A DNA stretch of 47,787 bases from a virus (lineage: Duplodnaviria; Caudoviricetes): positions 1-47,787 of IMG/VR virus record IMGVR_UViG_3300043414_000895; one strand, written 5' to 3'. Each line of letters starts with the position of its first letter. Positions within the stretch are counted from its first letter, which is position 1. Both the position numbers and the translations under genes were made by a program. The notes under the pieces were generated by a model. It did no database searches and had not been told where the DNA came from. It worked only from the letters and a program-made list of their open reading frames with translations. This document shows positions 39,434-43,614 of the stretch, one piece after another.

Positions 39434-39719
39434 TCCCGTTGCGGCGGCAAAAATTGAAGCGCTCTACCGCGAAATACTTGACACAGTCGCGCGCGAACAA
39501 GCGCATATGACCGCTGTTGGGTGCGTAATTTGCGGCAGCAAAGACCGCGTGCGCCCAATCTTTGACCATGAAAACGCGCCTTGTATGTGCAGGTATCACA
39601 GAGGTGGGTGGGGGGTGACCTTTAGTCGCTTTCGCTATGCCGGCCAAGATAAAGAACTGCATTTCGCAAAGTGGCTGGCAAAGAACTTAATCAAACAGGC
39701 AAACCATGCAGCACAGTAA
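39417..39719 (+). CDS. Hypothetical Zn-finger protein
   Basis: CVICG...C..H; TTG start assumed. Confidence 0.5.
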   Translation: MALANNPVAAAKIEALYREILDTVAREQAHMTAVGCVICGSKDRVRPIFDHENAPCMCRYHRGGWGVTFSRFRYAGQDKELHFAKWLAKNLIKQANHAAQ

Positions 39720-40836
39720 CGTCGTCGGCGGCTCATCGGCCAAGCGTGTCATCAACTGCCCCGGCTCAGTCGTGCTGGTGCAGAAGATGCCGCGCCAGCC
39801 CAGCAGCAAGTACGCTGCAGAGGGCACGGCGCTGCACACCTGCATCGACCGCCTGGTCAACGACGACACGTTGACCGTGCCGATGCTGCTGGGCAAGACG
39901 GTGGACGGCGTGGTCATCACCGAGGACCACATCGAGAAGCTAGTCTATGCTGTCCAAACGCTGGACACCATCGACCCGGCGATGACGCTGCGCTACGTCA
40001 CCGAGGTGCGTGTCGGCTTCGGTGACTTGCTGCCGGGCGTGTTCGGCAGCACTGACCTGATCGGGCGGCAGCGCAACCGCGCCGTCGTGCTGGACTGGAA
40101 GTTCGGCGACGGCGTGATGGTTGACGCGGAGGAGAACATGCAAGGGATGTTCTACGCCGCGGCGGCCATGCGTACGCCGGAGACGCAGTGGGTGTTCGAC
40201 GGCGTCGATGAGATTGAGATCATTATCGTGCAGCCGCCGTACACCCGGCGCTGGGTGACAACGCCGGCGCGCATCGCTGACTTCGAGGCCGAACTGGTGC
40301 GGGCCGTCAAGCGCTCGCAACTGCCCGACGCGCCTCTGTCAGTGGGCGACCACTGCCGCTGGTGTACGGCCAAGCCCATCTGCCCGCAGATGACGGGCGC
40401 GATCGACCGGGTTGCGCGCACCGCGCTGGAGGGCGTAGACTCCGCGTCCCTGGCCACCGCGCTGGCGCTGGCCGACCAGTTGGAGACGTTTATCAACGAC
40501 GCCCGTGCCCTTGCGTTCGCCCGCCTTGAGAAAGGTCTGGCCGTGCCGGGGTATAAATTGGTATCGAAGCGCGCAACGCGCCAGTGGACCAGCGAAGCGA
40601 AGGCCAAGGCCGCGCTGCTGGCCCTGGATGGTGTCGCGGAAAGCGACGTCACCGAGACAAGTCTCCTCAGCCCCGCCCAAGCGGAAAAGGTGCTGAAAAA
40701 GCGCAAGCTGGCGCTGCCTCCTGATGTTGTGGTGGCAGTGTCGAGCGGCAACACGCTGGCAGCGGAGAGCGATCCCCGCCCGCCGGTACTACTCATCGGG
40801 CAGCAACTGACCGCCGCCCTCTCCAAACTAGTCTAA
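39706..40836 (+). CDS. Cas4-like PD-(D/E)XK exonuclease (DUF2800-like)
   Basis: S.A.R...CPGS, GT.LH, FGS.D, DWKFG, Q..FYA and HCRWC....CP motifs. Confidence 0.9.
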   Translation: MQHSNVVGGSSAKRVINCPGSVVLVQKMPRQPSSKYAAEGTALHTCIDRLVNDDTLTVPMLLGKTVDGVVITEDHIEKLVYAVQTLDTIDPAMTLRYVTEVRVGFGDLLPGVFGSTDLIGRQRNRAVVLDWKFGDGVMVDAEENMQGMFYAAAAMRTPETQWVFDGVDEIEIIIVQPPYTRRWVTTPARIADFEAELVRAVKRSQLPDAPLSVGDHCRWCTAKPICPQMTGAIDRVARTALEGVDSASLATALALADQLETFINDARALAFARLEKGLAVPGYKLVSKRATRQWTSEAKAKAALLALDGVAESDVTETSLLSPAQAEKVLKKRKLALPPDVVVAVSSGNTLAAESDPRPPVLLIGQQLTAALSKLV

Positions 40837-40848
40837 GGAACTACAGTA

Positions 40849-41493
40849 ATGACCTCTCTCGTTGCATTTTCTAACGCCGGCCTGCCGGCAGTCTCTTCCC
40901 TGACCAGCGCCCTGCGCGCCATCGCTCCGGCAGGGGGTAGCGGCATGACCGCCATCCTCAAGATGGACCGCACGGGCCATTGGGTGTTCGGCACCGACCA
41001 GGAAGAAGTGGAAGATACCAGCCGCTGGGCCGTCAACCCGTTCTCGTTCGTCCACGGTTTCATCGCCTGGGGTGAGGGTGAGGTGCTGGCCGAGAAGATG
41101 GGCCCCATCACCCAGCCGGTGCCTGAGATCGGGCCGGCGCCGTCCGCGGCCCGCAAAGGGTGGGAACCGCAGGTGGGTTTCTCCTTGCAGTGCATCAGCG
41201 GTGAGGACAGCGGCATGGATGTGCGCTACACCGTGACCAGCGTGGGCGGCAAGCGCGCCGTGCATGAGTTGGCCGTGGCCATTGCCGCGCAGGTTGAGAA
41301 GGACCAGACCCGCCCGGTGCCTGTCGTGACCCTGGGCAAGGACCACTACCAGCACAAGCAGTACGGGCGCATCTTCACTCCCGTGTTTGTCGTCAAGGAG
41401 TGGGTGTCGATGGACGCCGAGCCGGCGGCTGACGCCGGGCCGGCGCCGGCAGATGAGCCGGCAGCACCTGGCCGTCGGCGCCGTTCGGTCTGA
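40849..41493 (+). CDS. Probable single-stranded DNA-binding/annealing protein
   Basis: Position between nuclease and polymerase; Y.HKQYGRIF.P.F; acidic/Pro tail. Confidence 0.65.
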   Translation: MTSLVAFSNAGLPAVSSLTSALRAIAPAGGSGMTAILKMDRTGHWVFGTDQEEVEDTSRWAVNPFSFVHGFIAWGEGEVLAEKMGPITQPVPEIGPAPSAARKGWEPQVGFSLQCISGEDSGMDVRYTVTSVGGKRAVHELAVAIAAQVEKDQTRPVPVVTLGKDHYQHKQYGRIFTPVFVVKEWVSMDAEPAADAGPAPADEPAAPGRRRRSV

Positions 41494-41500
41494 TTGAATT

Positions 41501-41590
41501 GGGGGCTGTTAAGCCAGCAATCGAGGATGGTGACTCACAGCGTTTTCTGGTTTTCCGCTGTGATTTATTGAAGCCCAAATCGAGGCCCCC
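41501..41590 (+). ncRNA. Structured RNA candidate with pseudoknot
   Basis: GGGGGC/GCCCCC closing stem; TCGA/TCGA; TCACAGCG/CGCTGTGA hairpin; loop CTGGTTT complementary to AAGCCAG. Confidence 0.55.
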
Positions 41591-41618
41591 GCCCATGATC
41601 AATCAACCGAAACGGAGA

Positions 41619-41640
41619 AGGGGCTTAGGCCCCTATTTTT
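41619..41640 (+). terminator. Terminator-like hairpin abutting the polA start
   Basis: AGGGGC-TTAG-GCCCCT-ATTTTT, then ATG. Confidence 0.55.
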
Positions 41641-43614
41641 ATGTCTGTACTCTGGATTGACTTTGAGACCCGCAGCCGCTGCGACCTCAAGAAGCATGGC
41701 GTCTACAACTACGCGCAGGACGCTAGCACCGAGGTGCTGTGCATGTCCTACGCCTTTGACGATGGCGAGGTGGTGACCTGGCGCCCCGGCGAGCCGTTCC
41801 CCGAGGCCGTGCGCGGCCACACCGGCCTGATCTACGCCCACAACGCCGCGTTTGAGCGGCTGATCTTCTGGTACGTCCTGCAGATCAACTTCAAGCTGGA
41901 ACAGTTTTATTGCACTGCAGCACAGGCACGCTCCAACTGCGCGCCAGGCTCGCTGGAGGATGTTGGCCGGTTCGCTGGCGCCAGCATGAAGAAGGACCAC
42001 CGCGGCGCGCAGCTAATCCGCTTGCTGTCCGTCCCGCAGGCCGACGGCGCCTTCCGCGAGGACGCGGCGCTGATGGCTGAGATGGTGGCGTACTGTGAGC
42101 AGGATGTGCGCGCCATGCGCGCCATCAGCCAGACCCTGCGCCCGATGTCAGCCGAGGAGCTTGCCGACTACCATGTCAACGAGCGCATCAACGACCGAGG
42201 CATCCTGATCGACGTCGAGCTCGCCCGCGCTGCCGTGGCCTACTCGGTGGAAGAAGTTGACGCGATCCAGTCTGAGGTGGCCGAGGTGACCGAAGGCGCC
42301 ATCACTAGCGTGCGCTCGCCCAAGATGCGCTCGTGGGTTTGGGACCGCGTGGGGCCGGAGGCCCGCCGGCTGATGACGGTCACGAAAGACGGCGAAGAAA
42401 AGCAGTCCATCGACAAAGCCGTTCGTGCCGCGCTGATCATCTTAGCAGAGGAGAACCCCGACGAGATACCGCCCGCGGTGGCCACGGTCATCCAGGCCGC
42501 TGACGATCTCTGGGCGTCGTCCGTCGCGAAGTTCGGCCGCTTGGCTGACCTAGCCGACAGCGAGGACCGCCGCGTCAGGGGTGCGCTGGTGTTCGCTGGC
42601 GGCAGCGCCACGGGCCGTGCTAGCTCATACGGCGCACAGGTCCACAATTTCGGGCGCAAGTGCGCTGCAGACCCGGAGGCTGTCAGGCGCGTGATGGTGC
42701 GCGGCTACCCTATCGTGCCGCAGTTCGGCAAGCGGGTCACCGATGTTCTCAAGGGCATGCTGCGCCCCTCAATCATTCCGGCCGCCGGCAAGAAGTTGGT
42801 GGTCGCTGACTGGAGCGCCATCGAGGGCCGCGTCAATCCGTGGCTGTCAGGCGCGGGCGACGACAAACTGGATGCGTTCCGCAGGGGACTGGACGCCTAC
42901 ATCGTCAACGCAGCGGTCACGTTTGCCCGCAGCTACGAGGACATCCTCGCCGGCTACAAAGCGGAGGAGAGCATGGCCGTGGGCCAGCGCCAGATCGGCA
43001 AAGTGCAAGAGCTTGCGTGCGGGTTCGGCGGCGGCGTGGGCGCGTTCGCGGCGATGGGCCGCGTCTACGGCGTGCTGCTGCCCGAGGCGCAGGCTAAGAG
43101 GATGGTCAACGCCTGGCGCCGTGCTAACCCGTGGGCGCCCGCGTTCTGGTCGGATCTGGAGCGCGCTTACATGGGCGCCATGCGCCGCCCCGGGCGGGAA
43201 TGCAGCGCTGGCCGCATAACGTATATGTTCGACGGCCAGACCCTGTGGTACATCCTGCCCAGCGGGCGCGTGCTGTGCTACCCGCAGGCCCGCATCGACC
43301 CTGACGGCGCCGTGTCCTACGCTAAAGCCTCTTGGATGCCTGCTGCAGACGCCAAGGAGTGGCCCCGGGCGCGGCTATGGTCTGGCCTGGCCTGCGAGAA
43401 CGTCACGCAGGCCGTCGCCCACGATCTGCTGCGCTACGCCCTGCGGGAGCTTCCCGAGGCCATTTTGCATGTCCACGATGAAATTGTGTGCCAGACTGAC
43501 GACCCCGTCGAGACGACGCGGCGCATGACCGAGGTGATGACGACCCCACCCGAATGGGCGTCCGGTTTGCCGCTTGGCATTGGCATCAAGACGATGGAGA
43601 GATACGGGAAATGA
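41641..43614 (+). CDS. Phage DNA polymerase, family A, with 3'-5' exonuclease
   Basis: DFETRS, AHNA.FE and YC.QDV (exo); ADWSAIEGR, RQIGK..ELA.GFGGG, ENVTQA and HVHDE (pol). Confidence 0.95.
   Translation: MSVLWIDFETRSRCDLKKHGVYNYAQDASTEVLCMSYAFDDGEVVTWRPGEPFPEAVRGHTGLIYAHNAAFERLIFWYVLQINFKLEQFYCTAAQARSNCAPGSLEDVGRFAGASMKKDHRGAQLIRLLSVPQADGAFREDAALMAEMVAYCEQDVRAMRAISQTLRPMSAEELADYHVNERINDRGILIDVELARAAVAYSVEEVDAIQSEVAEVTEGAITSVRSPKMRSWVWDRVGPEARRLMTVTKDGEEKQSIDKAVRAALIILAEENPDEIPPAVATVIQAADDLWASSVAKFGRLADLADSEDRRVRGALVFAGGSATGRASSYGAQVHNFGRKCAADPEAVRRVMVRGYPIVPQFGKRVTDVLKGMLRPSIIPAAGKKLVVADWSAIEGRVNPWLSGAGDDKLDAFRRGLDAYIVNAAVTFARSYEDILAGYKAEESMAVGQRQIGKVQELACGFGGGVGAFAAMGRVYGVLLPEAQAKRMVNAWRRANPWAPAFWSDLERAYMGAMRRPGRECSAGRITYMFDGQTLWYILPSGRVLCYPQARIDPDGAVSYAKASWMPAADAKEWPRARLWSGLACENVTQAVAHDLLRYALRELPEAILHVHDEIVCQTDDPVETTRRMTEVMTTPPEWASGLPLGIGIKTMERYGK

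Follow-up and report, generated by a model that had tools for sequence, protein, structure and literature searches.

A compact phage RNA behind an ssb-like gene, probably a new variant of the Atu_At1/Ti2 family

In phage T4, the autogenous operator of gene 32 is a pseudoknot that lies 5′ of ssb and is specific for that gene. The C4 antisense RNA of phages P1 and P7 is a small phage RNA that is freed from a longer transcript by RNase P and whose closing stem is followed by RCC; the reference list in the available part of PMC11143913 names it as an RNase P substrate. In bacteria, excerpts of PMC3384568 describe At1 and Ti2 of Agrobacterium as discrete RNAs of 113-115 bases that give single Northern bands. 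At1 is strongest at high density, while Ti2 is VirA/VirG-dependent, accumulates far above its downstream genes and can be deleted with tumour formation unchanged (PMC3384568, same excerpts); in an excerpt of PMC3738593, Ti2 is taken to belong to a 5′ UTR of 207 bases.

The RNA described here shares something with each of these. It lies in a complete virus record of 47,787 nucleotides (the window, meaning the whole stretch analysed), which carries head, tail, integrase and replication genes, and it fills much of a 147-base gap between an ssb-like gene and a family A polymerase gene. Like the gene 32 operator it is a pseudoknot adjoining a phage ssb gene, but it stands 3′ of ssb-type genes, and elsewhere beside unrelated genes. 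It differs from C4 in that Rfam gave no match to that RNA and in that its loops are conserved and locked in a pseudoknot, whereas those of C4 are free antisense sequences. The comparisons below suggest that its nearest described kin are At1 and Ti2.

The RNA and its setting in the window

The RNA starts 7 bases past the stop codon of the ssb-like gene. The features of the region are as follows.

39706..40836, + strand: DUF2800 / PD-(D/E)XK exonuclease gene of the replication operon (Pfam PF10926, E 9e-52; phrog_69)
40849..41493, + strand: OB-fold, ssb-like gene, phiC31 gp3-like fold (predicted model, pLDDT 72.5)
41481..41615, + strand: outer helix, about 41481-41498 / 41598-41615, in this genome only (duplex -20.9 kcal/mol)
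41501..41590, + strand: conserved RNA, closing stem P1 41501-41507 / 41584-41590 (7/7 pairs with double changes, 95.9% paired)
41508..41518, + strand: small loop G-UU-AAGCCAG-C with the pseudoknot 5′ strand at 41511-41517 (G, U, A and A invariant in 35 copies; closing pair G-C or G-U in 35/35)
Within 41521..41583, + strand: P2, 41521-24 / 41580-83 (2/4 pairs with double changes)
Within 41521..41583, + strand: internal loop GGAU / CAAA, 41525-28 / 41576-79 (comparative structure)
Within 41521..41583, + strand: P3, 41529-31 / 41573-75 (96% paired, changes one-sided only)
41535..41563, + strand: P4, 41535-42 / 41556-63, with a 13-base U-rich loop (8/8 pairs with double changes)
41547-41553, + strand: pseudoknot 3′ strand, in the P4 loop (100% paired, 4/7 pairs with double changes)
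41564..41572, + strand: junction ending in UYRAA, where the long Atu_At1 form has its extra hairpin and AGKCGAG (alignments, model alignments)
41591..41593, + strand: RCC (GCC at 41591) directly after P1, candidate RNase P determinant (24/38 compact copies, against 0-1 at five control offsets)
41614..41640, + strand: GGAG, GC hairpin 41619-41634 and U run, a terminator-like junction (terminator-like match; similar junctions in ssb relatives)
41641..43614, + strand: family A DNA polymerase gene (phrog_17, E 1.8e-91; annotated polymerases)

The product of 40849..41493 is presumed to be the ssb from its fold and position. Its model has 9teh_I as best structural match (Z 8.4, rmsd 4.7, 144 aligned), followed by OB-fold ssDNA binders at Z 4-4.6; a Pfam search found no domain in the protein, Foldseek with the model gave no match at E≤0.001, and a protein atlas lookup returned no family for either ssb candidate. 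The protein ends in a basic RRRR tail. The phiC31 recombination directionality factor is the nearest structure to its model (Z 8.4), yet this phage has an integrase of the phrog_1 type.

Scans with sequence patterns across viral and metagenome contigs returned 94, 75 and 66 stretches, many of them chance matches, and matches without the GUYAA loop and P1 were dropped as such, leaving 36 distinct compact copies. The GUYAA start is also the membership filter, so that its invariance is partly due to selection; the same holds for the apparent invariance of GGAUGG, UUUU and CCYAAAU, which the search patterns fixed. Across 35 aligned compact copies, 96.1% of 1050 alignment cells are paired and, in 21 of the 30 pairs, both partners have changed. 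None of 500 shuffles attains this pairing, which falls from 96% to about 50% on a slide by one column. An earlier note had drawn a pseudoknotted RNA from this sequence, and the ten strings that it quoted are all where it placed them; the gathering of homologues that it proposed bears the fold out, with double changes in P1, P4, P2 and the pseudoknot. The extension of the hairpin by G-U pairs, by contrast, belongs to the single-sequence fold only, as homologues pair GGU 41529-31 with GCC 41573-75. The comparative evidence thus identifies 41501-41593 as a conserved structured RNA with a loop-loop pseudoknot.

That pseudoknot is paired in all 35 aligned copies. Few sequences (L176, L199) contribute its double changes, since the common loop was held constant in the first pattern, and one-sided or G-C changes occur in L189 and L349. 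A G-U pair stands at one pseudoknot position in 21/35 copies, and the frequency of G-U pairs points to a conserved element that acts as RNA, not as DNA. An alternative inner helix from RNAalifold (columns 13-21 / 33-40) was rejected, having 0 double changes in 7 pairs against 4 for the pseudoknot. Folded as a single sequence the RNA is only mildly unusual (z -1.98; 7/200 shuffles as good).

The outer helix takes in the stop codon of ssb and the leading GG of GGAG and is present in both the minimum-energy fold and the centroid. Its -20.9 kcal/mol is equalled by 3/2000 shuffles, and the next best of the 36 copies has -14.4. This helix could couple translation in this genome, but in the folding model GGAG is mostly paired even without it. 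The sequence past the outer helix resembles the plain junction of L069/L072, as if a cassette had been inserted ahead of an older junction.

In blastn searches against cultured phages, the region matched 52 records in short pieces, with a coverage of at most 16%, and one long form (see below) gave no match. A still smaller form of about 80 bases (L102:1484-1572; also L627-L629) is without the UYRAA junction and scores 54 bits with the compact model; a scan for such forms yielded four matches, three L102-type copies and one chance match.

Kinship with Atu_At1 and Ti2

The earlier note could assign no family and had advised a search of Rfam. At a loose threshold this search reveals kinship with Atu_At1 (RF02496; 18.9 bits, E 1.5), which ranked first among the structured matches, with model positions 1-108 all aligned and the U-rich loop common to both, but at the cut-off of 60 it assigns no family. 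No family was found at the gathering threshold in the window or in 14 loci of ssb relatives, and four other compact copies gave no match to RF02496 at E≤0.05. In the reverse direction, the compact model recovers, correctly placed, 11 of the 15 long-form loci, the best with 40 bits. A pattern for the long form gave 21/21 true matches in viral contigs and at least 120 listed matches in bacterial genomes (about 310 estimated), nearly all of them alphaproteobacterial by their titles. Of the 13 distinct long forms from viruses, 11 pass the Atu_At1 cut-off. Two DNA-virus clusters are entered under RF02496 in a table that supplements PMC10690425, so that viral long forms have already been tabulated, and the compact form or the second motif described below may be among the candidates of that study.

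Ti2 (L371:2496-2604, pTi) and At1 (L282:1501-1608, pAt) score 80.5 and 115.3 bits against RF02496; by these model scores the two, although published as separate sRNAs, belong to one family. All six loop-loop pairs are kept in 118 of 123 distinct long forms (three dropped for want of an anchor), and the pseudoknot is fully Watson-Crick in 109/123, against a shuffle mean of 28.8 and maximum of 42, with its two outer positions fixed by the search pattern. The counterpart of P3 in the long form has double changes in 4/4 pairs. The extra hairpin and AGKCGAG junction are absent from 35/35 compact copies, present in 15 long ones and divergent in Ti2. The Ti2 junction resembles the compact phage form.

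Compact and long forms have in common the order of helices, the GUYAA loop, the GAU/YAA internal loop, the UUUU-N-UUUC loop, the loop-loop complementarity and reciprocal model matches. They differ in length (about 90 bases in phages, about 108 in Atu_At1), in the lack from the compact form of the GCC-AACGAAAU-GGC hairpin and AGKCGAG, in the pseudoknot (seven pairs in the compact form, six in Atu_At1), and in that the compact form has no promoter motif and is placed behind a stop codon. Because it falls below the cut-off and is missing one hairpin, we treat the compact RNA as a sister form, not as a formal member of Atu_At1. On this evidence the window RNA is a new compact phage variant of the orphan Atu_At1/Ti2 family. 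Among 151 sampled genomes of the phylum of G001, the compact model had 0 matches (27 candidates scored per genome, with no positive control), and RF02496 matched five, the centre of the sample among them. G001 carries two full copies of the Atu_At1 family and a weak one. Neither the compact form nor the pseudoknot, the kinship of At1 with Ti2 or the link to the promoter is described in the literature covered, in which subscription journals are scarcely represented; nor does that literature contain a paper for Atu_At1, for a structured RNA with ssb or for At1 with ligD.

Most bacterial long forms carry a promoter motif of their own. GGAAC stands at a fixed distance in 84/111 of them; in 85 of the 116 upstream regions it lies 45-51 bases ahead of the loop, and a strict motif (GGAAC-N16-CGTT-type) is found in 59/116, against 0.27 in shuffles. 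This consensus agrees with the one that PMC3892343 and PMC3738161 give for the general stress sigma factor (EcfG-type). None of the phage copies has the GGAAC motif (0/39 compact, 0/14 long). The ends of At1 and Ti2 mapped in the excerpts of PMC3384568 are at or a few bases from the base of P1, the 3′ ends lying just beyond P1. Two RNAs that have been orphans since 2012 thus come to share one fold, whose loop-loop pseudoknot covaries; they also gain a likely regulator in the general stress sigma factor, and relatives in phages, one of which, at 90 bases, is a natural minimal form that shows which parts are dispensable and should be easy to probe or crystallise.

The genes that follow the bacterial copies bear on whether the RNA is a ligand-sensing aptamer of a new class, acting as a riboswitch. 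Its complex fold with conserved unpaired bases, the position of At1 51 bases ahead of ligD, and the level of Ti2 far above its downstream genes, as in terminated leaders (PMC3384568, excerpts), are what such an element would show. However, the function encoded downstream is not common to the copies: a scan of 106 out of 127 candidate frames, from 80 loci, put 24 into Pfam families, of 16 kinds, with LigD accounting for five, and among eight plasmid matches examined three were unannotated, two had the next gene on the opposite strand, and in one it was 1.1 kb off. There is also no conserved expression platform and no match to a riboswitch in Rfam, and we consider this explanation improbable.

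The slot behind the upstream gene

Among the 36 compact copies the polymerase gene is directly downstream in only 10. The genes upstream include the window's ssb family (9 copies), an Enc34-type SSB (7), an unnamed family preceding a 5′-3′ exonuclease (8, three of them just past the distance limit) and others, and in five of the nine copies behind the window's ssb family the polA start is 200-720 bases farther on, behind other sequence. The RNA travels with the 3′ end of the upstream gene, often of ssb type, and not with polA. Compact copies lie 2-17 bases past a same-strand stop in 31/39 cases, although some of these frames are short and perhaps due to chance. Extra open frames are often present between the hairpin and polA (L006, L012, L026, L034, L059, L064, L075 and others), which marks an insertion hot spot.

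The earlier note had favoured a switch in which P1 and the hairpin at the polA start codon are mutually exclusive and set the level of polymerase. The genome does contain the necessary five-base complement, AGGGGC with GCCCC of P1, and the GGAG at 41614 is, as the note had it, the sole GGAG in 41494-41643. The alternative pairing can be drawn on paper but is not populated: it costs +4.1 kcal/mol and has a pair probability of 0.006, a value not exceeded under any constraint tried, and the minimum-energy fold contains P1 and the start-proximal hairpin together. With the 5′ strand of P1 blocked, as by a ribosome at the ssb stop, the hairpin has a probability of 0.999 and the alternative 0.0, in folds that ignore the pseudoknot. 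A five-base complement to the 3′ strand of P1 occurs within the next 57 bases in 2 of 36 distinct copies, and most copies lack the second hairpin. Taken with the few copies that directly precede a polymerase gene, these results make the switch very improbable. The second option of the note, an independent small RNA, finds support in the covariation, the kinship with Atu_At1 and Ti2, and the independence from the downstream gene.

The hairpin at the start codon is itself an ordinary junction. Of 80 close ssb relatives none carries the RNA; the 78 with enough sequence have a plain GC hairpin at the following start codon (66), the second motif (9) or neither (3). In 40 of 46 distinct plain junctions GAG precedes the hairpin, so that a ribosome site bridged by the hairpin is possible; such a site is independent of the RNA. 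In some phages the RNA occupies the place of the plain hairpin, with flanks alike.

That exchange could mean that the RNA is a cis element of the upstream message, either an elaborate terminator or a 3′ shield that stalls 3′-5′ exonucleases and raises ssb over polA. Its constancy behind the upstream gene agrees with this, as do the U run that follows P1 in 14 of 36 compact copies, in which P1 may serve as a terminator, and the 3′ ends of At1 and Ti2 just past P1 (PMC3384568, excerpts). We nevertheless regard a cis role as unlikely, since the bacterial copies stand right behind their own promoter motif with no upstream message to protect, plain hairpins suffice in 66 of the 78 relatives, and the conserved core is at the end opposite to the 3′ terminus.

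The patchy distribution, with no copy among the 80 close relatives, and the exchange with another motif at the same site would also be expected of a selfish or neutral cassette that is swapped by recombination with no benefit to the phage. Against such a cassette, compensatory changes preserve each of the helices in unrelated phages and bacteria, and no mobility gene was seen adjoining the RNA in the neighbourhood examined. This makes the cassette a decidedly improbable account.

Release and action of the RNA

If the RNA acts on its own, it must be freed from the message of the upstream gene. RCC(A) is what RNase P RNA pairs with (PMC11143913, available part), and of the 38 compact copies, which lack a promoter, 24 have RCC after P1, as do 7 of 105 bacterial copies (controls 3-7), counts that related sequences inflate. 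RCC is not specific to this RNA, because 13 of the 46 plain hairpins at this site have it too, and by the rule applied none of 10 long phage copies does. The 7 pairs of P1 and 4 of P2 could stack, compared with the stack of about 12 pairs, with T-loop, of RNase P substrates; no tRNA-like T-arm was found, and no tRNA was called in or over the compact loci. Two long phage copies start at the 3′ end of a tRNA-Met (L357:1588, L369:504). The RCC and the adjacency to tRNA-Met fit release by RNase P in the phages, as far as sequence can indicate.

A position at the 3′ end of a tRNA is likewise known for theta (HDV-like) phage ribozymes, and like these the RNA is compact, mobile and independent of particular genes. 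It might then be a self-cleaving ribozyme of a new class that cuts a polycistronic message or trims tRNA trailers. At1 and Ti2, however, are found intact at full length (PMC3384568, excerpts), and the conserved bases are mostly U and paired A, with none at the base of P1. Moreover, no ribozyme family of Rfam, HDV-like ones included, was matched at E≤10, and by inspection the order of strands fits none of HDV, twister, twister-sister, pistol, hatchet and hammerhead. Self-cleavage accordingly ranks for us as improbable.

We favour, with a probability of about one half, a stand-alone small RNA that is predicted to act by its shape on a host protein or complex, and not on polA. Such an RNA would be transcribed as the tail of the ssb-like gene message, the end of an ssb gene providing a high-copy launch site, released at its 5′ end by RNase P cleavage at the base of P1 and trimmed at its 3′ end back to the stem. 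We infer a fold of two stacks of helices that are connected at either end; the UUUU strand of the large loop would lie in the groove of the invariant AA/UU pairs, where it may form U-A-U base triples. The freed RNA would then bind its partner by shape: the binding of its loops in the pseudoknot and the freedom of their middle letters to vary argue against antisense pairing and for a protein, and since no partner gene is linked to the RNA, that protein would be a host factor.

A more far-reaching version of this idea, which we put forward tentatively and hold to be rather doubtful as a whole, is that the phage RNA imitates, in reduced form, an RNA of the bacterial general stress response. Its fold, with kissing loops locked by a triple helix, would bind a single host machine, and it would be launched from a slot at the ssb 3′ end that RNase P cuts and that serves to launch one or more further undescribed small RNAs, with a variable insert. 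Should phages indeed retain their own version of a host stress RNA, whatever it binds would point to a host process that they need to control. Treating the 3′ end of ssb as a place where small RNAs are exchanged gives a rule for finding more phage RNAs.

The other RNA is a second, unrelated motif at the junction of ssb and the next gene (L012, L029, L032, L058, L070, L073, L074, L076, with a variant in L010; also L500-L619). It consists of a closing stem, GAAAGCGGAUGC, a variable insert of 8-38 bases, GACGCAGCGAGUA, the stem and usually ACC, and RCC follows its stem in 70 of 101 copies. It occurs in about 430 viral stretches, with 109 distinct sequences among the 120 matches listed, and has no match in Rfam. 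The constant frame around a variable insert suggests an antisense or guide-like RNA, as judged from its layout. The junctions of L035, L036, L044 and L073 hold other inserts in the same hairpin, two of them with strings that resemble a tRNA T-arm.
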